Below are positions 5,478 through 62,859 of a stretch of 64,000 bases of DNA, piece by piece. Under the pieces are notes generated by a model. That model was not told the origin of the DNA. It did not search any database and saw only the letters and a list, made by a program, of their open reading frames with translations. Every line of letters starts with the position of its first letter. Position 1 is the stretch's first letter. Source of the stretch: Candidatus Wildermuthbacteria bacterium (GTDB lineage Bacteria; Patescibacteriota; Minisyncoccia; Minisyncoccales; PEYH01); the NCBI GenBank assembly GCA_037445205.1, contig JBBIKX010000001.1, positions 8,767-72,766 on the forward strand, written 5' to 3'. A program made the position numbers and the translations under genes.

Positions 5478-6119
5478 ATGTTGACAGACGTTTACAATCA
5501 AAAAGGCGAAAAAACAGGGCAAGCGCAACTGCCCAAGGAGATTTTTGGAGTAAAATTCAGAGCTGATTTGGTGCATCAGGTGTTTTCTTCCATGGTTTCA
5601 AACAAAAGAAGGCCCATCGCTCACGCAAAAGACAGGGGAGAGGTGAGGGGCGGAGGGAAAAAGCCCTGGCGCCAGAAAGGAACGGGCAGGGCAAGACATG
5701 GTTCGATCAGGTCTCCTTTATGGAGAGGCGGCGGGGTTACTTTTGGTCCAAGAAACGAAAGAAATTTTAAAAAAAGCATACCTAAAAAAATGAAAAGGTC
5801 AGCGCTCTTTTCCGTTTTGTCAGCCAAATTAAAAGATAATGAAATTATTGTTTTAGATAATCTTTTCCTGAAAGAACCCAAAACAAAATTAATGGACGAA
5901 ATCCTTGATAATCTTAAAAAAGCCGGTTTAAAGCAAAAAAACTGCTTGATTATTCTTCCAAAAAAGGATAAAAATATAGGACTGGCAGCAAGGAATATCG
6001 CGAAAATAAAAACCGCCCAAATAAATAATTTTAACATTTTAGACATACTTTCGTTTAAATACCTGCTTTTTACAAAAGAAACCATCGGCGCGATGAAAGA
6101 AACATTGATAAAAGATTAA
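5478..6119 (+). CDS. rplD: 50S ribosomal protein L4
   Basis: 213 aa. L4-like sequence in the S10-operon order. Confidence 0.9.
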   Translation: MLTDVYNQKGEKTGQAQLPKEIFGVKFRADLVHQVFSSMVSNKRRPIAHAKDRGEVRGGGKKPWRQKGTGRARHGSIRSPLWRGGGVTFGPRNERNFKKSIPKKMKRSALFSVLSAKLKDNEIIVLDNLFLKEPKTKLMDEILDNLKKAGLKQKNCLIILPKKDKNIGLAARNIAKIKTAQINNFNILDILSFKYLLFTKETIGAMKETLIKD

Positions 6120-6120
6120 T

Positions 6121-6525
6121 ATGGCTCCATTGAGAATTTTTAAACAAAAAAAAGAAAGCCCCAAAGAAAAAAAGAAAGAAGAAAAGAAAGAAACCGCAGA
6201 GAAGGTTGTCAAACAGGAAATTTCCAAACCAAGCAAAGTAAGAATGATTGCGTGGAGGGTTGTAAAAGCGCCTCATATTACAGAAAAGGCGACCATCGGG
6301 GAAGAAAGCCGCAGGTATATCTTTAAAATTTTTGAAAGGGCTAATAAGACTGAAACCAAAAAAGCCATTGAAGAAATTTTTAATGTGAAGGTTGAGAAAG
6401 TGAGGATTATTAATGTCCCAAGAAAAAAAAGACAGCGGGGAAGAGTGCGCGGATGGAAGGGGGGATATAAAAAAGCGATAGTGACGTTAAAAGAAGGATA
6501 TAAAATTGAAATTTTATCACGATGA
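6121..6525 (+). CDS. rplW: 50S ribosomal protein L23 (with a lysine-rich N-terminal extension)
   Basis: 134 aa. The L23 core is VVKAPHITEKAT...KVEKVRIINV. Confidence 0.92.
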   Translation: MAPLRIFKQKKESPKEKKKEEKKETAEKVVKQEISKPSKVRMIAWRVVKAPHITEKATIGEESRRYIFKIFERANKTETKKAIEEIFNVKVEKVRIINVPRKKRQRGRVRGWKGGYKKAIVTLKEGYKIEILSR

Positions 6526-7352
6526 TAGGGTTTGGCAAAAAAAACATAAGCAGAGGGAAAAAGCTAAAAAGGATTGATCTTTCGGGATTATCTAAAAAGA
6601 AACCCCAAAAAAGCTTGATTTTTTCTTTGAAAAAAAAGTCGGGCAGAAATTTTCAGGGAAGGATTACAGTAAGGCATCGGGGCGGAGGATCAAAAAAATT
6701 TTATCGCATGATTGATTTTTCCCAGAAGAAAATGAACATTGCGGGAAAGGTAGCGGCCATTGAATATGATCCAAACAGGACGGCTTTTATTGCCTTGATA
6801 GAGTACCAAGACAAAACCAAGGGATATATTTTGGCTCCTCAAAAGCTGAAAGAGGGCGATGAGATAATAGTGTCTGAATCAGCGCCTATAAATCCCGCCA
6901 ACAGAATGAAGCTGAAAAATATACCCGTTGGAACAGAAGTCCATAACATTGAATTGCAGCCCTTTGGCGGGGGAAAAATTGTTCGCTCCGCGGGCAGCTC
7001 TGCAACTGTTTTGGCGCAGGAAGGAGGATATGCTCACCTTTTATTGCCCTCAAAAGAAATAAGGAAAATTCATAGCGAATGTTTTGCAAGCATCGGAGCG
7101 CTTTCTCATCAGGAGCATAGATTTATCCGCATTCCCAAAGCAGGCACGATGCGTCTTAAAGGCAGAAGGCCGCAGGTCAGGGGCACTGCGATGAATCCGG
7201 TTGATCATCCCCATGGCGGCGGAGAAGGAAGAACAGGAATTGGCATGCCCCATCCAAAAACTCCTTGGGGAAAGCCGGCCTTGGGAGTAAAAACAAGAAA
7301 GAGAAAACATACCAACCAGTTTATCCTTCAGAGAAGGTCAAAGAAAAAATAA
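6522..7352 (+). CDS. rplB: 50S ribosomal protein L2
   Basis: 276 aa with RHRGGGSKK, AGT(M)RLKGRRP and HPHGGGEG motifs. Confidence 0.95.
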   Translation: MIGFGKKNISRGKKLKRIDLSGLSKKKPQKSLIFSLKKKSGRNFQGRITVRHRGGGSKKFYRMIDFSQKKMNIAGKVAAIEYDPNRTAFIALIEYQDKTKGYILAPQKLKEGDEIIVSESAPINPANRMKLKNIPVGTEVHNIELQPFGGGKIVRSAGSSATVLAQEGGYAHLLLPSKEIRKIHSECFASIGALSHQEHRFIRIPKAGTMRLKGRRPQVRGTAMNPVDHPHGGGEGRTGIGMPHPKTPWGKPALGVKTRKRKHTNQFILQRRSKKK

Positions 7353-7388
7353 CAAACAACCAACAATTAATAAATTATTTTAATTATT

Positions 7389-7730
7389 ATGGCGAGATCA
7401 TTAAAGAAAGGCCCATACATTGATAAAAAACTGATAGAAAAGATTAAAAAAACTGCGCCGGATTCGAAAACCATTATCAAAACATGGGCAAGGGATTGCA
7501 CCATTGTTCCGGAGATGATCGGGCGGTCCATTAATGTCCATAACGGGAAAGATTTTATAACCGTAAAGATAAGCGAAGAAATGGTTGGACATAGATTGGG
7601 AGAGTTTTCGCCGACTACGAAATTCGTAAGGCATGGAGGGAAAATGCAGAGAGATTTAGAGGCAAAAACCGAAGCAAGGGCGTTGCCTCAAAAAGAGACA
7701 GCAGGATTGCCCAAAGATAACAAAAAATAA
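7389..7730 (+). CDS. rpsS: 30S ribosomal protein S19 (C-terminal extension)
   Basis: 113 aa starting MARSLKKGPYID... Confidence 0.93.
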   Translation: MARSLKKGPYIDKKLIEKIKKTAPDSKTIIKTWARDCTIVPEMIGRSINVHNGKDFITVKISEEMVGHRLGEFSPTTKFVRHGGKMQRDLEAKTEARALPQKETAGLPKDNKK

Positions 7731-7738
7731 TCGCTTGT

Positions 7739-8161
7739 ATGGAAAAAAAAGATGTAGTGGCAAAATTAAATCATTTGAGGGTCGCGCCAAGAAAAGCAAT
7801 GCTTGTGGTTGATTTGATAAGGGGAAAGTCAATTAAAGAGGCGCTTGCTGTTTTGGATTTAGCCAATAAAAAATCAGCCCTGCCCGTTAAGAAATTATTG
7901 AACTCCGCCCTTGCCAACGCTAAAAATAATTTTCATTTAAGCGAAGAAAATTTATATATTTCAAAAATAGTCGTCAATCAGGGCCCAAAATTAAAAAGGT
8001 GGATTGCAAGGTCAAGAGGGCAGGCAAATGAAATCCAGAAGAAGACCAGCCATATTATTCTCGTGCTTTCAGAAAAAAAGAAACCAAAAAGCCCAAAAGA
8101 AAGGAAAATTGACAAAGGCGATAAAAAGCAAATTAAAAATAAAAAGAAGTGGAATAAGTAG
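7739..8161 (+). CDS. rplV: 50S ribosomal protein L22 (lysine-rich C-terminal tail)
   Basis: 140 aa. L22 core. Confidence 0.9.
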   Translation: MEKKDVVAKLNHLRVAPRKAMLVVDLIRGKSIKEALAVLDLANKKSALPVKKLLNSALANAKNNFHLSEENLYISKIVVNQGPKLKRWIARSRGQANEIQKKTSHIILVLSEKKKPKSPKERKIDKGDKKQIKNKKKWNK

Positions 8162-9325: not shown

Positions 9326-9532
9326 ATGATAAAAACAAAGATAAAAGAATTAAGAAGTAAAAATAAAGAAGATTTAGGTCGGCTGCTTTTAAACTTGCGA
9401 GAAAAGCTAAGGCAATTAAAATTTGATTTGGCTTCGGGGAAAATTAAGAATGTAAGCGAAATAAGAAAAATAAGAAAAGAAATAGCCCAGATTTTGACGG
9501 TTCTTGAAGAACATACGGATCAAAAAGTTTAA
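9326..9532 (+). CDS. rpmC: 50S ribosomal protein L29
   Basis: 68 aa. L29 helical pattern and operon position. Confidence 0.85.
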   Translation: MIKTKIKELRSKNKEDLGRLLLNLREKLRQLKFDLASGKIKNVSEIRKIRKEIAQILTVLEEHTDQKV

Positions 9533-9553
9533 TAATTTTTACATACAGCCAAT

Positions 9554-9787
9554 ATGGCAAAAAAGAAATTAATCGGAAAAATCGTCTCTTCTAAAATGCA
9601 GAAAACAGTCGTTGTAGAGGTTGAAAGAATGAAATTTCATTCCAAGTTTAAAGTGCGCCATAAAATGCATAAGAGGTATAAAGTTCATAATGAGGATCCA
9701 GAATATAAGGTGGGGGATAGGGTGATTATTGAAGAATCTTTGCCAATCAGCAAAGAAAAGAGATGGAGGATTATAAATAAGGTTTAA
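9554..9787 (+). CDS. rpsQ: 30S ribosomal protein S17
   Basis: 77 aa. S17 OB-fold sequence. Confidence 0.9.
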   Translation: MAKKKLIGKIVSSKMQKTVVVEVERMKFHSKFKVRHKMHKRYKVHNEDPEYKVGDRVIIEESLPISKEKRWRIINKV

Positions 9788-36900: not shown

Positions 36901-38340
36901 ATGAATTTTTCTGACCTATCTATAAAGGAGATTCATAATGGGTTAAAAAGCAAAAAATTTTCCTGCCGGGAGTTAACCGATTTTTATTTGAGCAAAATTG
37001 AAGAGTGGAATCCGAAAATCAATGCCTATCTTTGGATTTTTTTTGATCAGGCGCGCTATCTTGCTCAAGAAATTGATGAATTAATAGCGCAGGAGAAAGA
37101 GATCCATCTTCTTTCGGGAATTCCCTGCGCGATCAAAGACAATATTGCAATAAGGGGCCAAAAAGCGAGCGCCGGCTCCAAAATACTCAAAAATTATATT
37201 GCACCCTATGATGCGTTCGTTATAGAAAAGTTGAAGTCAAAAAATAGCGTTATACTCGGGAAAACTAATTTAGATGAGTTTGCGGTGGGCTCTTCGGGAG
37301 AACATTCCGCATACGGGCCCACAAAAAATCCCTTAGACCATAAACTTGTTCCGGGCGGATCATCTTCGGGATCAGCGGCGGCAGTCAGCCAAAAAATGTG
37401 CGTTTTTTCATTGGGTTCGGACACGGGCGGATCCGTGAGGCAGCCCGCCTCATTTTGCGGAGTTGTGGGATTAAAACCAACCTATGGGGCGGTTTCTCGG
37501 CATGGATTGATAGCTATGGCTTCATCGCTGGATCAAATAGGCCCCATCGCAAAAACAGTTGAAGATGCAGAAATCGTTTTTGAGGCGATTAGAGGACAAG
37601 ACAAAATGGATTCAACCAGCTTTGAAAAAAAAGAAGAAGATTTTGAAAAGAAGCTTCAGGCAGAGAAATTTAAAATCGGAATCGTGAAAGAAGGGATGGG
37701 CGAGGGGATAGACAATGAAGTTCTTGCGTCTTTTAAAAAAACGATAGAAAATATAAGAAAAGAAGGAGTCAGCCTGGAAGAAATTAGCCTGCCCCACCTG
37801 CATTACGGACTCGCCTGTTATTATATTTTGATGACTGCGGAAGTTTCAAGCAATCTTGCAAGGTATGATGGAATAAAATATGGCCAATCAAAGAAAGACG
37901 CAAAAAATCTTTTAGATATTTATTTTGAAACAAGGAAAGAGTTTTTTGGACCGGAGGTGAAGCGAAGAATAATGCTTGGGACTTACTGTCTGTCATCGGG
38001 CTATTACGAGTCTTATTATTTAAAAGCCCAAAGAACAAGGACAAAAATAGTAGAGGATTTCAAAAGCGCATTCAAAAAAGTGGATTTGCTGTTAATGCCC
38101 ACCTCCTCCACTCTTCCATTCAGATTGGGCGAGAGGATAGACAATCCTTTGTCAATGTATCTTGCAGATTTGTTAACCGTTCCTGTTAATCTTTCAGGGC
38201 TTCCCGCCATTTCCATCCCTTTCAAGGACAAAAAGAAATTTCCGATAGGCATTCAGCTTATTGCTCCGGCCTTTGGAGAAAAAAAGATATTTGAATTTGG
38301 AAAATTTTTTGAGAAAATATGTCAATCCAAAACAACATAA
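36901..38340 (+). CDS. gatA: Glutamyl/aspartyl-tRNA amidotransferase subunit A
   Basis: 479 aa. Amidase signature with GGSSSGSAAAV. Confidence 0.93.
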   Translation: MNFSDLSIKEIHNGLKSKKFSCRELTDFYLSKIEEWNPKINAYLWIFFDQARYLAQEIDELIAQEKEIHLLSGIPCAIKDNIAIRGQKASAGSKILKNYIAPYDAFVIEKLKSKNSVILGKTNLDEFAVGSSGEHSAYGPTKNPLDHKLVPGGSSSGSAAAVSQKMCVFSLGSDTGGSVRQPASFCGVVGLKPTYGAVSRHGLIAMASSLDQIGPIAKTVEDAEIVFEAIRGQDKMDSTSFEKKEEDFEKKLQAEKFKIGIVKEGMGEGIDNEVLASFKKTIENIRKEGVSLEEISLPHLHYGLACYYILMTAEVSSNLARYDGIKYGQSKKDAKNLLDIYFETRKEFFGPEVKRRIMLGTYCLSSGYYESYYLKAQRTRTKIVEDFKSAFKKVDLLLMPTSSTLPFRLGERIDNPLSMYLADLLTVPVNLSGLPAISIPFKDKKKFPIGIQLIAPAFGEKKIFEFGKFFEKICQSKTT

Positions 38341-38945
38341 TCAATATTCCCAATTACGATTTTGAGGGGTTATTTTCTTATCTTTTAAGGATTGTTCAGG
38401 GATTTAAAATTCCCTTCATTGTTGTTTCTTTAATATTGCTTGCCGGAATTGTATATTTTATGGTTTTTACGGATTATCTTTATTACAAATACTTTGAGCA
38501 ATGGGAGGAATATACCAAATGGAAAGCGATGCATAAAATTCCCCGCAGAAAAAAAAGGAAAATCATCCAAAAGGAAAATCCGCTCTCCATGGCGCCGTCC
38601 CTGCCCGCAGAAGAGTCAATCATAAAAGAATCAAAACCGCCGGGGGAGTGGGAAAGGATTTTTGAAAAGCTTAAAAGCCAAAAAGGCATTGATTATAAAT
38701 TGGCGCTTGTTGACGCAGACAGATTGCTTGCCAAAAAATTAGAAGAAGCGGGAATCGCGGGAAGGAATTTAGATCAGCAAATAGAAAATGTTCCTCCGGA
38801 TTTTAAAATGGATTTGTCCCAGATTAAAAAGGCGCGAAATCTTTTAAAAGAGGTATTTTTGGAAGAAAAAAAGAAGACTGCGAAAAGCTCTGTTAAAGAG
38901 GCAATTGAGGTGTATAAAAATGCGTTTGACGCAGTAAAAATTTGA
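38319..38945 (+). CDS. Hypothetical membrane protein
   Basis: 208 aa with one TM and a charged C-terminal region. Confidence 0.5.
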   Translation: MSIQNNIINIPNYDFEGLFSYLLRIVQGFKIPFIVVSLILLAGIVYFMVFTDYLYYKYFEQWEEYTKWKAMHKIPRRKKRKIIQKENPLSMAPSLPAEESIIKESKPPGEWERIFEKLKSQKGIDYKLALVDADRLLAKKLEEAGIAGRNLDQQIENVPPDFKMDLSQIKKARNLLKEVFLEEKKKTAKSSVKEAIEVYKNAFDAVKI

Positions 38946-38975
38946 TTTTTTCTAAAAATCAATATATAAATACGA

Positions 38976-39049
38976 TAGCGGGGTGGACCAGTAGTAGGTC
39001 GCGGGTCTCATAAGCCCGAAGCGTTGGTGCAATTCCAGCCCCCGCTACC
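38976..39049 (+). tRNA. tRNA-Met (CAU), initiator-like; CCA is encoded
   Basis: Manual fold: acceptor agcgggg/ccccgct, D-stem gacc/ggtc, anticodon stem cgggt/gcccg (three G:C pairs), loop ctCATaa, T-stem gttgg/ccagc. Confidence 0.85.
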
Positions 39050-39084
39050 AGTTTAAAAATAAAAAATTTTAATTTTTCTCTGTG

Positions 39085-39156
39085 GCCGGTGTAGCTCAGT
39101 GGCAGAGCAAACGTTTCATAAGCGTTGGGTCGTTGGTTCAATTCCAACCACCGGCA
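39085..39156 (+). tRNA. tRNA-Met or tRNA-Ile2 (anticodon CAU), elongator-type
   Basis: Acceptor gccggtg/caccggc, D-stem gctc/gagc, anticodon loop ttCATaa, T-arm gttgg-ttcaatt-ccaac. Confidence 0.85.
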
Positions 39157-39175
39157 AAAATTGAGAATATATTAT

Positions 39176-39250
39176 GGACCCATGGTGTAGCCCGGTTAAC
39201 ACATCTCCCTGTCACGGAGAAGATCAGGGGTTCAAATCCCCTTGGGTCCG
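39176..39250 (+). tRNA. tRNA-Asp (GUC)
   Basis: Acceptor ggaccca/tgggtcc, anticodon stem tctcc/ggaga, loop ctGTCac, T-loop ttcaaat, discriminator G. Confidence 0.88.
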
Positions 39251-39253
39251 CAA
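39235..39253 (+). repeat. Direct repeat copy 1 (aatccccttgggtccgcaa), the 3' end of tRNA-Asp; attL-like
   Basis: A 19/19 identical copy is at 40465-40483. Confidence 0.9.
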
Positions 39254-39305
39254 TACGAGATTTGTCAAAGATTCTGTTTCGCAATCAACGCGGAAGTGAC
39301 AATTT

Positions 39306-40373
39306 ATGAAAATTTCTGATTTAAATTTTAGTAATTTCAATAGACAAATTAAATTTTCAATGAAAGCAATACTAAGCGATTTTAAATATTTCTATTTATC
39401 GATTTTTTTCTTTGGAATTCTTTTGTTTTTCATTCCTGAAATTTGTAGCGCTAATTTCCTTATAGGAGGATTTTTTATGTATAGTTTCTCTTTGTTGGCG
39501 CCCGTTATTTTCACGGGCGTTTGGGCCATAGAAGCCTTAACTATCAAGAATAAATTAGGGGGGACGCCACAAAAAGCACTATTTACTGCTTTAGTGGTAA
39601 ATTTGGCCACCAGCCTATCGGGCTTTGTTTTGGTTAAAAAAAACTTCTTGGCGGAATACACCCTATATAACGAATCTCTTACATTAATGATTTTTTTCCT
39701 TCTATCTGTTTTTGTTGAAATGTTAATGTTGCATTTTTGCTATAGAGAAGAATCTTGGCATAAAGTAATTATTGCTAGCTTTTTAATGAATCTGAAATCT
39801 TACTTTTTTTTAGCGTTTTTCTTGATAGGAGATTTTACAATCATAGGCGGGGCTATTATTTTAGTTATTGTCGTCCCCTATTTTTTCACAAAAGCTTTTA
39901 GGATGTTAGCCCCGGACAGAGAGTTTTTAAAATTTTTTAAAATAAGATCAGGCATCTTAATTCATTTCCTTTCCATTGTTCTAATCGGTTTGGTGTTTAT
40001 AGGAACCATAAAGGCGATAGATAAAGCGTTTCTTAAGCAAAGAAGAGAGGTGATAAAAGAGCATGAGGTAATGTCTAACATGCTTCAGATAAGCTCCAAG
40101 GCAGAATTGATCTATGCATACAAAGGAAGTTATGAATCATTAAATTGCGACTATGACGAAGAAATAAAAAGTGCTTGCAAGAATATTGAAAAGAAGACAG
40201 GCGCCAGGCTCACTATTCATACATCTGAAAACAGATATTGCGCCTATATTAAATTAATTTATTCTGAAAAATGGTATTGCGCAGATAATATTTCTGGACT
40301 TATCCCTGGGAAAATTAATATTAATCCCTCTATTTTGGGGTATTGTGATGGTAAGACTTTTATTTGTCCATAA
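39306..40373 (+). CDS. Polytopic membrane protein with a Cys-rich C-terminal domain (cargo of the tRNA-Asp-flanked insert)
   Basis: 355 aa, about 7 TM segments. C-terminal NCDYDEE...CAYIKL...YCADN...YCDGKTFICP. Confidence 0.6.
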   Translation: MKISDLNFSNFNRQIKFSMKAILSDFKYFYLSIFFFGILLFFIPEICSANFLIGGFFMYSFSLLAPVIFTGVWAIEALTIKNKLGGTPQKALFTALVVNLATSLSGFVLVKKNFLAEYTLYNESLTLMIFFLLSVFVEMLMLHFCYREESWHKVIIASFLMNLKSYFFLAFFLIGDFTIIGGAIILVIVVPYFFTKAFRMLAPDREFLKFFKIRSGILIHFLSIVLIGLVFIGTIKAIDKAFLKQRREVIKEHEVMSNMLQISSKAELIYAYKGSYESLNCDYDEEIKSACKNIEKKTGARLTIHTSENRYCAYIKLIYSEKWYCADNISGLIPGKININPSILGYCDGKTFICP

Positions 40374-40464
40374 ATATTAGCTTATTTGTAAGAATTAGAT
40401 GTGTTGTCCACAATTTTTTAGAGTAAAAATAATTGATTAATTTTTCCATCGGTATCAGATTATT

Positions 40465-40483
40465 AATCCCCTTGGGTCCGCAA
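40465..40483 (+). repeat. Direct repeat copy 2 (aatccccttgggtccgcaa); attR-like duplicate of the tRNA-Asp 3' end
   Basis: Perfect 19-bp match to 39235-39253, about 1.2 kb downstream of the tRNA. Confidence 0.9.
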
Positions 40484-40505
40484 CGATACAAATTTCTTAC
40501 CTTAA

Positions 40506-40531
40506 AGCCGCGCTCCAGCGTGGCTTTTTTT
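40506..40531 (+). terminator. Rho-independent terminator (agccgcgc-tcca-gcgtggct-ttttttt); likely the original tRNA-operon terminator
   Basis: An 8-bp stem (one G:U pair), tetraloop and a 7-T run. Confidence 0.75.
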
Positions 40532-40589
40532 GGTTGAAATTTTTTTTGATTCTGATAGATTGAAAAAATAACCAAAAGGAGGTGAGACA

Positions 40590-41588
40590 GTGTCTTGCGA
40601 TACAGCCGTTATCGTGAATGTGCAGGCGGGCGCGGGAATGACTCGCTGGAAGTTGGCGCATCTTATGCGCCAGTTAAACCGCATTCTTTCTGTGCCCAAG
40701 AGTTGTGTCTGGCTGACTCGGGAAACCGGCGAGAGCAGCGCCACATCCCTGGCATCTTTTGCCCAAAGCAGAGGGGCCAAAGCAGTGATTGTCTTTGGCG
40801 GAGACGGCACGGTTCATCAGGCAGTAAACGGCCTGAAACTGCCCGATCCTTCAATCTCTGTTGGCATTGTGCCCTGCGGTACGGCCAACGTGGTTGCTTC
40901 CTGCCTTGGAATGCCAAGAAATGTCAAAGCGGCGCTGGAAGTCATAAGGGCCGGAATGACAAGAAAGATCGATCTGGGAATCCTGGAGGGAGATGGCCTT
41001 CCAAGATACGCGGTTTCCACGCTAAGCGTGGGACTTGACGCGATGATAAACGAACTGGCGCATCGTGTTAAGCCCCTGTTTCGGAAATACCATCTGCCAT
41101 CCATCTTGGGCTACATTCCGCCTCTTCTTAGATACACTCTTAATGAAGTTCCGCTCTACGATGTAGCTGTCAAAAAGGATGGATTGGTTTTTTGCGAAAG
41201 GATATCCTTTCTGGCAGTAACAAACACTCCATGGTATGGAGGCGGATTGGTGGACAGAACTGCCAAGCTTGACGACGGGCTGTTTAACATGATATGCGCC
41301 AGAAAGATCAGGTCCCGCGATCTTCCCTGGTGGATGTTTCAGATGTGGCAGGGAAATCACATCTATTATCCCAAGGTTTTTCTGCCCTGCTCTTCGTTTT
41401 CAGGATTAAGCATAAGTTCTGACTTTCCCTTGCCCGCGCAGATTGACGGACAGATTCTGCCCGCCCGGAAGAACATCGCAATCTCTGTCGTTCCCCGCCT
41501 CCTGCAGGTTTTCGCACCTTTGCCCCAACCAGAAAGAACAAAGCATTCTGGTTGGGGTTGTTTTTTTGATATGTCCAGGTTCAGATAG
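40590..41588 (+). CDS. Diacylglycerol-kinase catalytic-domain lipid kinase (YegS/BmrU-like), in GC-rich island B
   Basis: 332 aa with GTG start and SD AGGAGGTG 5 nt upstream. Motifs VIVFGGDGTVHQAVNGL (the GGDGT signature) and IVPCGTANVVA. GC is much higher than the flanks. Confidence 0.75.
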   Translation: MSCDTAVIVNVQAGAGMTRWKLAHLMRQLNRILSVPKSCVWLTRETGESSATSLASFAQSRGAKAVIVFGGDGTVHQAVNGLKLPDPSISVGIVPCGTANVVASCLGMPRNVKAALEVIRAGMTRKIDLGILEGDGLPRYAVSTLSVGLDAMINELAHRVKPLFRKYHLPSILGYIPPLLRYTLNEVPLYDVAVKKDGLVFCERISFLAVTNTPWYGGGLVDRTAKLDDGLFNMICARKIRSRDLPWWMFQMWQGNHIYYPKVFLPCSSFSGLSISSDFPLPAQIDGQILPARKNIAISVVPRLLQVFAPLPQPERTKHSGWGCFFDMSRFR

Positions 41589-41591
41589 ATA

Positions 41592-41620
41592 TTGACCAAA
41601 ATATTCTTTTATGATATAAT
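41592..41620 (+). promoter_or_regulatory. Consensus sigma70 promoter TTGACC-17-TATAAT inside island B
   Basis: TTGACC at 41592-41597 and TATAAT at 41615-41620. It is followed by ttggatatccTAAGGAGGTG. Confidence 0.65.
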
Positions 41621-41647
41621 TTGGATATCCTAAGGAGGTGATGCGTG

Positions 41648-41815
41648 ATGAAGGCGGGTATAGTGATTTTCCGGCATACACAAGTAGAAACGCTGCAGGC
41701 GACGGTTAACGCGTTTCTCAAGGTTCACGCTCCACATATGGAGAACCTTGAGCATCAGCTGGTAGTGACTCCAGACGGCACTATCGTCTTGACCCTGCTT
41801 TATCGGGCTAAGTAG
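41648..41815 (+). CDS. Small hypothetical protein (55 aa), island B
   Basis: SD TAAGGAGGTG at 41631-41640, ATG 7 nt later. Translation MKAGIVIFRHTQVETLQATVNAFLKVHAPHMENLEHQLVVTPDGTIVLTLLYRAK*. Not in the ORF track (under 60 aa). Confidence 0.5.
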   Translation: MKAGIVIFRHTQVETLQATVNAFLKVHAPHMENLEHQLVVTPDGTIVLTLLYRAK

Positions 41816-41837
41816 GGTTCGTAAGGAGGGAGGAACG

Positions 41838-42101
41838 ATGCGTAAGCTCTTTGCGGCGATTGTCGGACTCTACCGTCGGCTCTGGATGATTGAGCCCCGC
41901 CGTTTCAAACGGGGACAAATCATCCAGTTCGAAGACTGGCGCGATGGCATTAGAGTTGCCAAAGCCAGATACCTGGTTCTCGGCAATACACCCTCCGAGA
42001 AGAGGTACGTCCTGGAGGGTGTTGGGCCCGGCAACAAGGGGAGGCGCGAGCGCCTTCGCTTCCGCTGGGTTGACAAACACGCACATTTGGTGCGCGGCTG
42101 A
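41838..42101 (+). CDS. Small basic hypothetical protein (87 aa), island B
   Basis: SD AAGGAGGG at 41823-41830, then the ATG. A strong terminator follows. Confidence 0.55.
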   Translation: MRKLFAAIVGLYRRLWMIEPRRFKRGQIIQFEDWRDGIRVAKARYLVLGNTPSEKRYVLEGVGPGNKGRRERLRFRWVDKHAHLVRG

Positions 42102-42111
42102 AATGCCTGTT

Positions 42112-42155
42112 CCGCCCGGGACTAAGGAGGAGTTCCGGGCGGTTGTTGTTTTTTG
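42112..42155 (+). terminator. Rho-independent terminator (ccgcccgg...ccgggcgg, ttgttgttttttg)
   Basis: An 8-bp perfect GC stem with a T-rich tail. The loop contains taaggagg. Confidence 0.7.
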
Positions 42156-42204
42156 ATGAAGTTTCTGGTATCGTATCAAGTATCGCACATTGGGAGGTGG
42201 AACG

Positions 42205-42348
42205 GTGCACAAATGGGTAATCTTTGCGGTAGTGGTGATCCCAAGCATTCTCATCGGTTCCCTTATCTGCCTTTTCCAAGGAAAGGGCAGAAGAGTGTGG
42301 TCCTTCGCTAAGGGGAGAGTCTTTGCTTGGGCGGAAACGGATTGGTGA
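42205..42348 (+). CDS. Tiny single-TM protein (47 aa, GTG start), island B
   Basis: SD GGGAGGTGG at 42192-42200, 6 nt before the GTG. Translation VHKWVIFAVVVIPSILIGSLICLFQGKGRRVWSFAKGRVFAWAETDW*. Confidence 0.45.
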   Translation: MHKWVIFAVVVIPSILIGSLICLFQGKGRRVWSFAKGRVFAWAETDW

Positions 42349-42371
42349 ACACAATCCTCTTGGCACTTGTT

Positions 42372-42407
42372 AACCGGCGCATCTTCTGATGGGCCGGTTC
42401 ATCTTTT
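42372..42407 (+). terminator. Hairpin aaccggc...gccggtt with a weak U tail; probable right-end terminator of island B
   Basis: A 7-bp stem with a 14-nt loop, followed by catcttttaacaaaaaa. The sequence turns AT-rich after this point. Confidence 0.4.
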
Positions 42408-42472
42408 AACAAAAAATGCTCCATTTTTTGATTTGATTTTTGTTTGTTTTTGAATTAGAATTAATATATAAA

Positions 42473-43519
42473 ATGGATTTAAAAAGCATTAAAAAGAAAG
42501 CAAAAAAGGAGATTGAATCGGCAAAAGATTCTGTTGCGCTAAAGCATATTTTTCAAGATTTTTTCGGCAAAAAGGGCGAGATTGCCGTCATTTTAAGCTC
42601 TCTTAAAAATCTTCCCCAAAAAGAAAGAAAGGACAAGGGAAAAATTATAAATGAAGTAAAAAAAGAGGTTCTGGAAATGATTGCAAAAAAAGAAAATAAT
42701 TTGAAAAAAATTGAGGCGGCTTTGGACGCAAAAGAGGAGTGGATTGATATAAGCTTTCCCTCAAAAAAAATTCCTCTGGGACATCTTCACCCCCTTACCC
42801 AAGCCAGAAGAAAAACAGAGGAAATTTTTGAAAAACTTGGATTTTCTGTGATTGAAGGACCCCAGATAGAAACAGAGTGGTATAATTTTGACGCCCTAAA
42901 CATTCCCAAAGATCATCCCGCGCGGGACAGGTGGGACACTTTTTGGCTCAGGGAGTCAGAAAGTCAAAAGTCAAAGGTCAAAAGTCAAAGGTTATTGTTA
43001 AGAACCCACACAAGTCCGGTTCAAATCCGCTATATGGAAAAAAACAATCCTCCCTTGCGGATTATTGTTCCAGGCAGAATATTCAGATACGAGGCGACAG
43101 ACGCTTCTCATGAAATAAACTTTTACCAGCTGGAAGGATTAATGGTTGATTCAAAAGTAACCCTTGCCGACTTTAAAGGAGTGATGGAAAAATTTTTCCA
43201 GATGTTTTTTGGCGATGAGGCCAAGATCCGGCTAAGGCCCAGCTATTTTCCCTTTACCGAACCGAGCGTTGAAATTGATATTAGCTGCCGGATATGCAAA
43301 CAAGAGGGATGCAGCGCTTGCGGCCGGAAGGGCTGGGTTGAAATAGCGGGCGCAGGCATGGTTCACCCAAATGTTTTTAAAGCAGCCAACCTTAACCCTA
43401 AAAATTGGCAGGGATTTGCGTTTGGAATAGGTCTTGATAGGTTGGCTATGATGAAATACAGGATTAATGATATAAGATTGTTCTATGGGGGAGATCTGCG
43501 GTTTCTTGAGCAATTTTAA
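42473..43519 (+). CDS. pheS: Phenylalanyl-tRNA synthetase alpha subunit
   Basis: Class II motifs (HPARD, FRYEATDASHEINFYQLEG, GFAFGIGLDRLAM). ATG at 42473; the ORF track starts at an upstream TTG (42440). A 10-aa repeat-encoded insertion is present. Confidence 0.92.
   Translation: MDLKSIKKKAKKEIESAKDSVALKHIFQDFFGKKGEIAVILSSLKNLPQKERKDKGKIINEVKKEVLEMIAKKENNLKKIEAALDAKEEWIDISFPSKKIPLGHLHPLTQARRKTEEIFEKLGFSVIEGPQIETEWYNFDALNIPKDHPARDRWDTFWLRESESQKSKVKSQRLLLRTHTSPVQIRYMEKNNPPLRIIVPGRIFRYEATDASHEINFYQLEGLMVDSKVTLADFKGVMEKFFQMFFGDEAKIRLRPSYFPFTEPSVEIDISCRICKQEGCSACGRKGWVEIAGAGMVHPNVFKAANLNPKNWQGFAFGIGLDRLAMMKYRINDIRLFYGGDLRFLEQF
42955..42992 (+). repeat. Tandem microsatellite-like repeat (GTCARAR)x5 inside pheS
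   Basis: gtcagaa-a-gtcaaaa-gtcaaag-gtcaaaa-gtcaaag encodes SQKSKVKSQR. Confidence 0.8.
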
Positions 43520-50006: not shown

Positions 50007-50429
50007 ATGAAAAAAATACAAACAAAAGTTAAACTCCATATCGCCGCCGCTCAGGCTAATCCCGCCCCTCCTATCGGTCCCGCCCTTGCGCAACACGGAA
50101 TAAACATCGCTGACTTTTGCCAGAAGTTTAATGCCGCAACTAAAAATCTGGCAGGTTATCAGATTCCTGTTGAAATATCAATATACGAGGACAGGACTTT
50201 TAATTTTAAAATAAAACAGCCCCTTGTCAGCGATCTTTTAAAAAAGGCAGCGGGCATTGAGAAAGGGTCGGGCGAGCCGAATAAAATTAAGGCTGGAATA
50301 ATCACCAAAGAGCAGTTAAAAGAGATTGCCCAGAAGAAATTAGACGATTTAAACACAAAAAACATTGATGCCGCAATGAAAATTATTGAAGGACAGGCAA
50401 GATCAATGGGAATTGAAATTAAAAATTAG
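50007..50429 (+). CDS. rplK: 50S ribosomal protein L11
   Basis: 140 aa with [22 protein letters not shown]. It is not followed by rplA. Confidence 0.95.
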
Positions 50430-50434
50430 TTTTT

Positions 50435-51265
50435 ATGACCCAGTTTGACGAGCAGTATAAACAAGCAATCTGGGAAGTAATGAACGGAGGTACGGAAATT
50501 TACAGCGCAAGACAGAAATGTCATACCAAAGCTTTTCCGGGCATAACCTTTAATTTAGACAAAGGATTTCCTCTGCTTACTTTGAGAAAAATTCCTGTTA
50601 AAATTTTTGTCGCTGAACAATTCTGGTTTTTGATGGGCGAAAAAGACCCCAAGGTTTTTTTAAAAAAATTTACTGCCATATGGGATGATTTTGCCGATCA
50701 AAATGGATTAGTTTTGGGCGCTTATGGCTATCGCTGGAGGAAGCATTTTGGGAAAGATCAAATAGCCAATTTGTTGAGCCTTCTTTCCCAGGATCCAAGT
50801 TCGCGTCACGGAGTTGTGGTGGCGTGGGATCCCTCAGACGACATCAGGACCCTTGATTCAAAAAAGAAAAACGTTCCCTGCCCCTATACTTTCACTGTTA
50901 ATATTATCGGCAATAAGCTTCATATTCATATTATTATAAGGTCAAACGATATGATTCTTGGCTGTCCTCACGATATTGCGGGATTTGCGCTTTTGCAAAG
51001 GATTTTGGCCGGAAAGCTGGGGGTAAAGACAGGAAAGCTTACTTGTTCCATCAGCAATGCCCACATTTACGATATTCATTACAATGCGGCATGGGAGATG
51101 CTTGAAAGAAAAAACAATCATCCCGAAATTATTTTGGACGCAGAAGAAAATTGGTTTGACAGGGCGGAGAAGGGAGATGAATCGCTTGCTCAAGAAATTA
51201 TAGATACCATTGCAAGACAATATAGCCCGATGAATCCCATTAAGGGCTTAAAAATTATTTTATAA
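50435..51265 (+). CDS. thyA: Thymidylate-synthase-family enzyme with Asn177(E. coli)->Asp and RSND motif (possible cytosine-nucleotide C5-modifying enzyme)
   Basis: 276 aa. TS fold motifs: FPLLTLRK, AEQFWFLMGE, catalytic VPCP, IIRSNDMILGCPHDIAGF, SNAHIYDIH. A gap-free 22-residue alignment from the catalytic PC puts D where all TS enzymes have N (LPFNIAS). Confidence 0.8.
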   Translation: MTQFDEQYKQAIWEVMNGGTEIYSARQKCHTKAFPGITFNLDKGFPLLTLRKIPVKIFVAEQFWFLMGEKDPKVFLKKFTAIWDDFADQNGLVLGAYGYRWRKHFGKDQIANLLSLLSQDPSSRHGVVVAWDPSDDIRTLDSKKKNVPCPYTFTVNIIGNKLHIHIIIRSNDMILGCPHDIAGFALLQRILAGKLGVKTGKLTCSISNAHIYDIHYNAAWEMLERKNNHPEIILDAEENWFDRAEKGDESLAQEIIDTIARQYSPMNPIKGLKIIL

Positions 51266-61983: not shown

Positions 61984-62859
61984 TTATGCTGGTTTATAGA
62001 CACGGTTTACCAGCACTTGGCGGGCAAACGTCACCCTCCATGTCGGGCCTACGAATCCGACTTCCCGGAGCAGTTGTTCCCATTGCGGAATTGCGAGGAA
62101 GGTGTATGTTCCTTCTTTTCCCTTTCTTTGTATTTCAAGGGCGTGACGAAGTATGCTTGTGCCCTGAAGAATTCGGCTAAAATCCCGATTTCTTATGTAG
62201 GGCAGAGGATTGAGCATGTCAGGAAGAGAAGCGACAAACACCCATTGGAAGTGAACGTTTTGTCTGGGAGTAGACCAGACGATATGTCCTCCGGGCTTGA
62301 GCACCCTATGCATCTCTCTGAAAACTTCCCTCATGGCCCTTATGCCTTTTTCGCTTCGAAAGTCAGTTGCATAGGGGATAACTAAATTTGCGATAATTCC
62401 ATCAAAGTGGTTATCGTCGAAGGGAAGTTCTTCGCCAAGATGAGCGAAAACAAGATGCATGGGCAACGTGGGGTGAAGAGATTGCGTTTTCCGCGCCGGA
62501 TCAAGAACTATATCCAGACCAACTACCAATTTGATAGTTCTGCCGGATTTGTTCCATGCCAAGAGAGCCATCTTGGCGGGTCCGCAGCCTACATCCAGCC
62601 AAACTTCGTTAGCTTTGGGCTGGATTAATCCGGCGACTGTCGTTGTAAGGTTGTGGTAGGGTCTTGCCTTTTCCAGGTTTTTGTAAATCCTTGCGTAATC
62701 CCTCCAAAACGCCAACTCTTGTCCCCAAGAGCGGATCCTTCCTCTTGTGAAGGGCGAAAGCCCGTTCTCATTTGCTTCCAGCCACTCTTCTATGCTCTCC
62801 GTGCTTAATCCTTCTCCAAAGCACGGCCCAAGGATCTCTGATATGCTTTTGGTTTTCAT
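61984..62859 (-). CDS. Class I SAM-dependent methyltransferase (GC-rich cassette E)
   Basis: 291 aa. Motif I VWLDVGCGPAKMALL and post-I/II motifs. SD AAGGAGGT sits 5 nt before the ATG. GC is much higher than the flanks. Confidence 0.75.
   Translation of the reverse strand: MKTKSISEILGPCFGEGLSTESIEEWLEANENGLSPFTRGRIRSWGQELAFWRDYARIYKNLEKARPYHNLTTTVAGLIQPKANEVWLDVGCGPAKMALLAWNKSGRTIKLVVGLDIVLDPARKTQSLHPTLPMHLVFAHLGEELPFDDNHFDGIIANLVIPYATDFRSEKGIRAMREVFREMHRVLKPGGHIVWSTPRQNVHFQWVFVASLPDMLNPLPYIRNRDFSRILQGTSILRHALEIQRKGKEGTYTFLAIPQWEQLLREVGFVGPTWRVTFARQVLVNRVYKPA

Follow-up and report, generated by a model that had tools for sequence, protein, structure and literature searches.

The DNA analysed here is a stretch of 64,000 nucleotides (the window) from contig JBBIKX010000001.1 of a Candidatus Wildermuthbacteria bacterium. 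Between its tRNA-Met/Met/Asp cluster and pheS lies a segment with four open reading frames (ORFs), which encode a predicted lipid kinase and three small proteins, named p55, p87 and p47 from their lengths in residues. These four ORFs are referred to below as the cassette, and L-numbers (L001 and so on) denote contigs of relatives that were compared with the window. The closest named relatives found with gyrB are Candidatus Parcubacteria, Pacebacteria and Nealsonbacteria, and we place the host among the Parcubacteria, in the Candidate Phyla Radiation (CPR).

Organisation of the locus

The cassette differs from its surroundings in composition. The GC content is 0.47–0.585 across positions 40500–42400, compared to 0.28–0.40 in the flanks and 0.387 for the window as a whole; for the segment taken together it is about 0.52. 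At third codon positions (GC3) it is 0.55–0.68 in the four cassette ORFs, against a mean of 0.385 in the 63 other ORFs of the window (sd 0.04, maximum 0.50). With a GC content of 0.51–0.58 against 0.387, the cassette is atypical of its host in composition, in the way that a genomic island would be.

An earlier reading of this DNA, here called the sequence-only reading, had described a GC-rich segment of about 1.9 kb, and these values bear it out. It had also described a 332-residue DAGK_cat kinase with a GTG start, two promoters, Shine–Dalgarno (SD) sequences and three small ORFs, all of which are found where it had placed them (Table 1). Its count of two strong terminators needs revision: terminators are indeed present, but there are four hairpin/U-tract sites rather than two, at 40504–40527, 41523–41557, 42112–42142 and, more weakly, 42372–42399.

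Promoter-like sites are more frequent here than in shuffled sequence (16 in a 4-kb scan, against 7.3 ± 2.9), the internal promoter upstream of p55 being the top-scoring site. A terminator equivalent to that on the 5' side of the kinase promoter is present in all the lineages that have the kinase, and the hairpin after tRNA-Asp is also found in the sister strain discussed below. An element resembling TTGAAA/TTGAAT ... TAAATT/TAGATT occupies the position of the kinase promoter in L168, L001, L002 and L169.

The segment also contains antisense ORFs of 148 and 138 residues, and ORF length by itself is therefore no evidence of coding here. Neither these nor the ORFs in other frames have Pfam matches. 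A search of positions 38500–43000 against Rfam at E ≤ 1 returned tRNAs and chance matches only, with no T-box or other leader upstream of pheS.

Table 1. Features of the cassette and its borders, in window coordinates. SD, Shine–Dalgarno sequence.
Feature	Position	Strand	Details
Copy of tRNA-Asp 3' end, 19 nt	40465–40483	+	exact repeat of 39235–39253 (100% identity)
Terminator closing the upstream tRNA/insertion transcription unit	40504–40534	+	10-bp stem and T-run; terminator scan
Kinase promoter	40534–40561	+	TTGAAA-16-TAGATT, 9/12, upstream TG; promoter scan
Kinase SD	40576–40584	+	AAGGAGGTG
Kinase ORF, 332 residues	40590–41588	+	GTG start at 40590; ORF list, Pfam
Kinase terminator	41523–41568	+	perfect 12-bp stem CCCCAACCAGAA/TTCTGGTTGGGG, then TTGTTTTTTTG; within 3' end of ORF
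Internal promoter	41592–41620	+	TTGACC-17-TATAAT, 11/12, upstream TG; promoter scan
p55 ORF, 55 residues	41648–41815	+	SD AAGGAGGTG at 41632–41640
p87 ORF, 87 residues	41838–42101	+	very basic; SD AAGGAGGGAGG at 41823–41833
Terminator 3' of p87	42112–42152	+	12-bp stem with 9 G-C pairs, AAGGAGGA in loop, T-run
p47 ORF, 47 residues	42205–42348	+	GTG start, single-pass membrane; SD GGGAGGTGG at 42192–42200
Likely p47 terminator, weaker	42372–42407	+	imperfect hairpin AACCGGCGCATC/GATGGGCCGGTT and CATCTTTT; read from sequence
pheS promoter, then pheS	ATG at 42473		pheS named by Pfam

Family and inheritance of the kinase

Pfam recognises two domains in the kinase, both above their gathering thresholds: DAGK_cat (PF00781, residues 6–130; 87.9 bits against 23.6, E = 5e-25) and YegS_C (PF19279, residues 144–308; 42.4 bits against 27, E = 8e-11). 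The earlier assignment to the DAGK_cat kinases of YegS/BmrU type, in which the GGDGT motif was named, is thus correct. An alignment of 121 family members places this motif at residues 70–74, where G70 is shared by 120 members and the other four positions by all 121. The PxGTxN motif is also kept (G97 never varies, and 111 of the 121 have N100), as is (K)LDDG, with D228, D229 and G230 conserved. At the C-terminal DG[E/D] motif the window and sister kinases have Gln288 in place of the acidic residue. This position is acidic in 115 of the 121 sequences, being occupied by Glu in 93, Asp in 22, Gln in five and Arg in one.

The kinase falls below every NCBIfam cut-off, including those of TIGR00147 (98.6 against 118.65) and PRK13057 (104 against 274), and also those of the equivalogs for YegS (TIGR03702, 46.3 against 387) and MamU (57.5 against 400). 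We regard it as a divergent member of the soluble DgkB/YegS/BmrU lipid-kinase superfamily, and not as an ortholog of YegS. Its nearest homologs are few, with identities of 95%, 72%, 54–56% (three sequences) and 36% (one), the rest being at 31% or below. No relative above 31% identity was found among the GTDB species representatives, and IMG/VR contains only two relatives, at 23–26%. A match to phrog_8777 among the PHROGs reflects superfamily membership only.

The 3' end of the gene is unusual in that its last 22 codons or so pass through the gene's own terminator, the stop codon (TAG, 41586–41588) lying 18 nt beyond the U-tract. In L168 a TAA precedes the same hairpin; the window and sister ORFs have lost that stop.

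The sequence-only reading had seen the cassette as an island. It is of interest to ask how long the kinase has been at this site, and the relatives give a consistent answer. The closest is a metagenome-assembled genome, GCA_964383555.1, which is 97–98% identical to the window in the flanks at the nucleotide level and is referred to here as the sister strain. Its contigs end at positions equivalent to 40644, to 41632 plus 35 nt, and to 42401 of the window. On sister contig L166, tRNA-Asp is directly followed by the terminator, the promoter and the start of the kinase, the contig matching window positions 37901–39251 and then 40465–40644. The order tRNA-Met/Met/Asp cluster, kinase, pheS recurs in L001 and L169, whose kinases are 54–56% identical to that of the window, and in L084 (36%), while L002 (55%), L085 (36%) and L175 (36%) have the kinase followed by pheS. 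The contig with the 72% identical kinase, L168, is too short to show the flanks. L172 is the only lineage in which the kinase is missing: here tRNA-Asp is followed by pheS, and the simplest reading is that this lineage has lost the gene.

Rates of divergence were also compared. When the window is compared with the sister strain, the synonymous divergence (dS) of the kinase is 0.12 and its nonsynonymous divergence (dN) 0.020, with a ratio (omega) of 0.17, compared to dS of 0.07–0.16 for the flanking genes and an omega of 0.165 for pheS. Between L001 and L002, dS is 0.74 for the kinase and 0.64 for pheS. The groups defined by kinase identity coincide with those defined by pheS, gyrB and gatA. 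The host branching order obtained from gyrB and gatA, (((window, L001 group), L172), L084 group), agrees with the kinase identities of 55% and 36%. Because the gene is syntenic in the relatives, diverges at synonymous sites like its flanks, and falls into the same groups as the host genes, we conclude that it was in place long before these genera separated, and that it has since been passed down vertically under purifying selection.

The island interpretation would make the segment a recently acquired, foreign, GC-rich and SD-using piece of DNA at tRNA-Asp, carrying a self-contained lipid-signalling or toxin/immunity module. We now consider this very unlikely. There are good reasons why it was proposed: GC and GC3 lie far beyond the host range, strong SDs precede all four ORFs within a genome that otherwise lacks them, the segment adjoins a tRNA gene and a repeat of a tRNA end, and the locus clearly takes insertions, both here (a 355-residue ORF) and in relatives (GIY-YIG, LAGLIDADG/group I intron and 23S_rRNA_IVP ORFs). 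In addition, L164 and L171, which belong to different genera, have an identical 55-mer just upstream of pheS. Against this, the sister strain and six other, diverged lineages have the kinase at this site, and its divergence parallels that of the host genes; the congruence between kinase and host, and the agreement between kinase and flank dS, are seen in the pairs available. The 31% identity of the closest homolog among the GTDB species representatives also counts against it. The ORF list and Pfam reveal no integrase or other mobility gene in the cassette. The phage, plasmid and viral collections contain no DNA match (with blastn at distant settings for phages and plasmids) and no close protein match, and a tblastn search for p87 in phages returned nothing. 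Finally, what the repeat bounds is a neighbouring insertion rather than the segment itself. The possibility raised by the sequence-only reading of an ordinary host YegS of host-like composition fares differently in its parts: the kinase is resident in the host, but it neither has host-like composition nor is an ordinary YegS.

The neighbouring insertion occupies window positions 39252–40464. The exact 19-nt repeat of the tRNA-Asp 3' end (Table 1) is the only tRNA-end repeat pair, and since in the sister strain tRNA-Asp is directly followed by the kinase unit, the 1.2 kb between its two copies is a strain-specific insertion. It is AT-rich and contains an ORF at 39306–40373 (+) for a multi-pass membrane protein of 355 residues, which is missing from the 98% identical sister strain and is not accompanied by an integrase. 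The protein belongs to no family in Pfam, PHROGs, NCBIfam or PADLOC and has no viral relative.

The tRNA-Met/Met/Asp cluster gathers other selfish elements in the relatives. L001 has a GIY-YIG ORF at 9450–9713, L084 has a group I intron (78.9 bits) and a LAGLIDADG ORF at 6413–6671 and 6831–7781, and L172 has a 23S_rRNA_IVP ORF at 5771–6148. On the other side of the kinase, the 55-mer shared by L164 and L171 occupies positions 1–55 of both contigs (equivalent to window 42401–42455), although their pheS genes are only 61% identical, and contigs of three assemblies break at this site. It may be either a junction in a co-assembly graph or a recently shared sequence. Upstream of the tRNA cluster, a 208-residue ORF at 38319–38945 (+), which has no Pfam family, overlaps the end of gatA. 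It has syntenic counterparts before the cluster in L001 (214 residues), L169 (199) and L172 (196).

Small proteins downstream of the kinase

The number and identity of the ORFs between the kinase and pheS is not the same in all the lineages. In the window the spacer is 884 bp and contains p55, p87 and p47. In L001 (840 bp) there is a 126-residue transmembrane (TM) ORF followed by a p47-like ORF, while L002 (532 bp) lacks the 126-residue ORF of L001 and has the p47-like ORF only. L084 (704 bp) has a 154-residue TM ORF, and L085 (136 bp) and L169 (90 bp) have none. The compact module described in the sequence-only reading is thus not a fixed unit. Of the co-occurrence of kinase and small ORFs that it had proposed to look for, p47 is found with the kinase in L001 and L002, but the kinase stands alone in L169 and L085 and the p55/p87 pair occurs nowhere else.

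The promoter that precedes this variable part is itself conserved. Sister contig L170 has it unchanged, and a recognisable form (TTGACC...TATGAT) is seen in L001. L170 follows the window with 96% identity as far as 41632, just past the promoter, and from 41633 the two diverge completely; the sister contigs resume at the equivalent of 42401. This suggests, on thin evidence, that the cargo of the slot behind the conserved promoter differs between strains.

All three small ORFs have an SD of 7–9 nt located 4–7 nt before the start codon, and in each case the annotated frame scores best of the six under a codon model trained on the kinase. p55 has a near-neutral isoelectric point (pI) of 8.3. No homolog was found in a word search of 5.8 billion clusters. 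AlphaFold2, run on the single sequence, gives a predicted β-α-β-β unit with a confidence (pLDDT) of 95, and a Foldseek search of the PDB with this model finds only generic β-α-β-β matches. p87 is very basic (pI 11.6) and has no match among 1.84 billion representative proteins. Its model, an N-terminal helix followed by β-strands, is of low confidence (pLDDT 57), and a fold search with this low-confidence model finds no match. The structure predictions that the earlier reading had asked for are thus informative for p55, if only as far as a generic fold, and not for p87. That reading had seen no recognisable homologs for the cassette ORFs; this holds for p55 and p87, which are orphans by database search, but not for p47, which has homologs in L001 and L002.

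Possible counterparts of p87 are found by position in L177 (89 residues), L001 and L084. They have in common with p87 an N-terminal hydrophobic helix, a pI of 10–12 and a short β-rich C-terminus. BLASTP gives E = 0.016 for p87 against the L177 ORF, over the N-terminal 29 residues only, and the pairwise comparisons with the ORFs of L001 and L084 are not significant (E = 0.23 and 6.7). The homology is at this stage suggestive. It is worth adding that the p87-like ORF is intact in L177, where it contains a run of five G, and frameshifted in L175 and L176, two contigs from separate samples that have six G at position 1224–1229. The difference could possibly be phase variation or a homopolymer error.

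p47 has one predicted TM segment (maximum Kyte–Doolittle value of 2.85 over 19 residues). Its homologs in L001 and L002 are at the same place, begin with MHKW, and share with it an IP motif and the sequence LFQGxxRxxW, with in-frame indels. Exactly 47 codons and the start position are kept, although the lineages are only 31% identical. The hairpin on its 5' side (loop AAGGAGGA) and the terminator on its 3' side are also kept in L001 and L002. We consider the constraint at the protein level to be weak but compatible with a small membrane protein. PADLOC gave no defence match apart from a chance hit of 14.8 bits between p47 and ThsA. A role for p47 as a pheM-like attenuator leader of pheS was considered and rejected, its 47 residues including four Phe but no Phe run. 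The sequence-only reading had held that small ORFs with neither conservation nor coding signal would speak against it. p47 is conserved, whereas p55 and p87 are orphans, though with frames that are the best of six.

Two other explanations of the small ORFs need to be considered. The first is that p55 and p87 are an orphan type II toxin–antitoxin pair, or a toxin/immunity pair, which occupies the variable slot and has no functional relation to the kinase. The arrangement is reminiscent of such pairs, in that the two ORFs are 22 nt apart, behind a near-consensus promoter of their own and before a strong terminator, with the upstream product near neutral and the downstream product very basic; the model of p55 is that of a compact, folded protein, and both are strain-specific or orphan. 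However, Pfam, PHROGs, NCBIfam and PADLOC show no match to any toxin–antitoxin, defence or immunity family, and so lend no support to the toxin/immunity idea of the sequence-only reading either. The fold searches yield generic matches for p55 and nothing for p87, the combination is seen nowhere else, and relatives have at this position a single gene, whose product carries a membrane anchor at its N-terminus. A toxin–antitoxin pair therefore seems to us improbable.

The second is that positions 41621–42150, and possibly also the p47 unit, are mainly a structured non-coding RNA or regulatory leader, within which the small ORFs arose by chance. Folding of the 524-nt transcript gives −218 kcal/mol (z = −4.5 relative to dinucleotide shuffles), and windows across the cassette have z-scores of −0.2 to −4.9 compared to about 0 in host genes. 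The strongest of these scores coincide with the terminators, however, and no Rfam match was found down to E = 1. The segment is GC-rich in an AT-rich genome, and neither p55 nor p87 has homologs, but each ORF is preceded by an SD of 7–9 nt at the correct spacing, the annotated frames are the best of six, and p55 is predicted with a pLDDT of 95 from its sequence alone. For p47 the evidence is similarly divided. Between L001 and L002 the p47 unit has no excess of changes at third positions, and the 92 nt upstream are as conserved (85%) as the ORF (83%), yet 47 codons and the start are kept, with in-frame indels, across lineages that are 31% identical. A tRNA-like RNA element does occur at the same intergenic position in related loci. 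On the other hand, conservation of the segment does not extend even to the sister strain, which would be unexpected for a functional RNA. We regard this explanation as a long shot.

The tRNA-like element is worth describing in its own right. It is an unannotated RNA-like sequence of about 165 nt directly 5' of pheS, found in L172 (6474–6634), L175 (1503–1676) and L177 but not in the window. An 11-bp stem closes the element, which also contains internal hairpins, a hairpin resembling a tRNA T-arm (GGGGTTCGAATCCCC) and a U-tract, and in L175 it has its own TTGACT-17-TATAAT promoter. The sequences of two lineages align with compensatory changes. There was no Rfam match at E ≤ 10 and no ARAGORN call. 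A new tRNA-like RNA and a leader of pheS are both possible readings.

Translation signals, proposed function and related systems

The most unusual feature of the cassette is its translation signals. An SD of at least six nucleotides precedes the first start codon of all four cassette ORFs but of only one of the 63 other ORFs in the window, and of none of the 62 AT-rich host ORFs. The housekeeping genes of L001, L002, L169, L084, L085 and L172 likewise lack SDs. By contrast, all eight kinase lineages have the core RGGTGRGA ahead of the start of this gene. In every lineage the kinase is also richer in GC than its host, by 0.04 to 0.13, and its GC3 excess is 0.09 to 0.14 in the five lineages measured, even though synonymous sites are saturated between the groups. 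More distant CPR kinases (L086–L095) have host-like GC and no SD.

The single SD-led ORF outside the cassette is also the single other GC-rich gene of the window. It encodes a predicted S-adenosylmethionine (SAM)-dependent methyltransferase at 61984–62859 (−), with SD AAGGAGGT, a GC content of 0.486, a GC3 of 0.50 and a match to Methyltransf_11 (E = 5e-13). It may belong to the same GC-rich, SD-led class as the cassette.

In Parcubacteria an anti-SD motif was detected in only 48% of cases (Tsurumaki et al., PMC9297842), and those without it overlap with the group lacking ribosomal protein uL1 (PMC9297842). In this connection, rplK (L11) is followed by thyA or dcd, and not by rplA (L1), at window positions 50007–51265 and at the equivalent positions of L001, L002, L164, L171 and L172; this arrangement, which is seen in the sister strain (97% identical to the window) and in four other related lineages, fits the uL1-lacking subgroup of Parcubacteria. 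Because sigma-70 promoters, strong SDs and GC-rich terminators occur together in an otherwise SD-less genome, the cassette, with its putative SDs, probably follows another mode of translation initiation than the other genes of this genome.

On the basis of these observations, we think it probable that this is a long-resident accessory locus, made up of a divergent lipid kinase, a variable slot of fast-changing small proteins, and the conserved p47. It would lie in a hot spot of recombination and insertion between the tRNA-Met/Met/Asp cluster and pheST. The kinase would use ATP to phosphorylate diacylglycerol, or a related membrane lipid, at the surface of the membrane, and its product would feed lipid salvage or recycling in a cell that probably cannot build lipids de novo, CPR bacteria being generally regarded as lipid auxotrophs. 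Past the kinase terminator, the conserved strong promoter would drive a slot for fast-evolving small proteins that are basic and often membrane-anchored. The slot would here hold p55 and p87, and would be followed by the separately conserved TM micro-protein p47. The small proteins may be membrane partners or modulators of the kinase, rather than a toxin/immunity pair. What we infer in this proposal is the lipid on which the kinase acts, its functional connection with the small proteins, and what the SD and GC signature means.

Several observations weigh against this proposal. The glutamate of the DGE motif in DgkB is reportedly the proposed catalytic base, and the copy with Gln288 may be impaired or have altered chemistry or activity. 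Because the kinase falls below every NCBIfam cut-off, no substrate can be transferred to it from a characterised relative. Efficient termination at 41523–41568 would give non-stop kinase transcripts; alternatively, translation may suppress termination, so that transcription reads through into the p55/p87 unit. L169 and L085 carry the kinase without any small ORF. The variability between strains is read from a 35-nt contig tail and from contig break points, the resemblance of p87 to its counterparts is borderline, and neither p55 nor p87 has a detectable homolog. For p47, the comparison of L001 with L002 gives an omega of 0.49, with 8, 9 and 8 differences at the three codon positions. p47 also has terminators of its own, and a promoter of its own that is visible in L001 and L002 though not clearly in the window. 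Finally, a foreign GC signature should long since have faded from a gene that is inherited vertically, and its persistence here is unaccounted for.

For this last point there are three candidate explanations: selection for a separate, SD-dependent translation regime; GC-biased repair or gene conversion at a recombination hot spot; and repeated exchange between lineages, for which the 55-mer of L164 and L171 may be compared. The first can be put more precisely, namely that the signature is functional, and that the cassette and the methyltransferase form a small class of genes translated only by a subset or state of the ribosomes in which the anti-SD is available. Such specialised translation would add to the explanation given above and would not replace it. 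It would account for the RGGTGRGA core in all eight kinase lineages when the host genes of the five lineages examined are without SDs, for a GC3 excess that has survived saturating synonymous divergence, and for the lack of both features in the distant CPR kinases. There is also a precedent, in that the SD-blind ribosomes of Bacteroidia translate the SD-led rpsU only when they are without bS21 (PMC9976891, PMC7797042). On the other side, about half of Parcubacteria lack the anti-SD (PMC9297842), and without it the motif could not serve as an SD, and GC-biased gene conversion at a hot spot could give the GC excess with no connection to translation. We therefore think a functional signature rather unlikely. 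A wider form of the idea would make the cassette an SD-dependent expression class in SD-less Parcubacteria, some of them perhaps even without an anti-SD, in which the SD and GC signature has been selected across deep lineages and marks a distinct ribosome state, initiation route or cellular context; it would then be a CPR counterpart of the bS21/rpsU switch, tied to the handling of membrane lipids. This is quite unlikely, and we offer it as a speculation.

The accessory kinase locus that we favour is of interest for two reasons. CPR bacteria are believed to obtain their lipids from other cells, and a lineage-specific lipid kinase with membrane micro-proteins would give a handle on how scavenged lipids are processed. 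In addition, a vertically inherited block whose SDs are strong and whose GC content is 4 to 13 points above that of its host conflicts with the common assumption that atypical composition means recent transfer, and the cassette could serve as an entry point into translation initiation in Parcubacteria, about half of which reportedly have no anti-SD motif. If the signature reflects only GC-biased repair at a hot spot, the locus would be an ordinary accessory gene with orphan small ORFs. In either case there remains a lineage-restricted locus built around a divergent lipid kinase, with three small proteins, one conserved and two orphan, and with an SD and GC signature that is so far unexplained.

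The locus can be compared to several known systems. The best match of the kinase among solved structures is DgkB of Staphylococcus aureus (PDB 2qv7; E = 4e-19 over residues 40–310). The two share the DAGK_cat and YegS_C architecture and the GGDGT and KLDDG motifs. The match is nevertheless weak (72 bits), relatives of the kinase outside its clade are at most about 31% identical, and Gln288 replaces the Glu of the DgkB DGE motif. The kinase also differs in its place in a CPR genome, flanked by a tRNA cluster and pheS, and in having an SD and GC signature unlike its host; diacylglycerol is for it a presumed substrate. The YegS/Rv2252/BmrU family (TIGR00147; E. coli YegS, PDB 2bon/2jgr) belongs to the same superfamily, and the 72% identical homolog, P0002, is labelled by JGI as a YegS/Rv2252/BmrU family lipid kinase. 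However, the YegS structures match only the N-terminal 85 or so residues of the kinase, and the cut-offs of TIGR00147 and TIGR03702 are missed.

For the translation signals, the closest comparison is with Bacteroidia, specifically rpsU of Flavobacterium johnsoniae, where an SD-poor genome likewise has very few genes with a strong conserved SD (PMC9976891, PMC7797042). These bacteria belong to another phylum, and the SD-led genes described here, which are seen in sequence only, are a kinase cassette and a methyltransferase rather than a ribosomal protein gene. In its setting the cassette resembles tRNA-linked islets, since it adjoins a tRNA cluster, varies in content between strains and lineages, and has selfish insertions and a 19-nt repeat next door. 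It differs from them in that its core kinase is vertically inherited, and in having neither bounding repeats nor an integrase.

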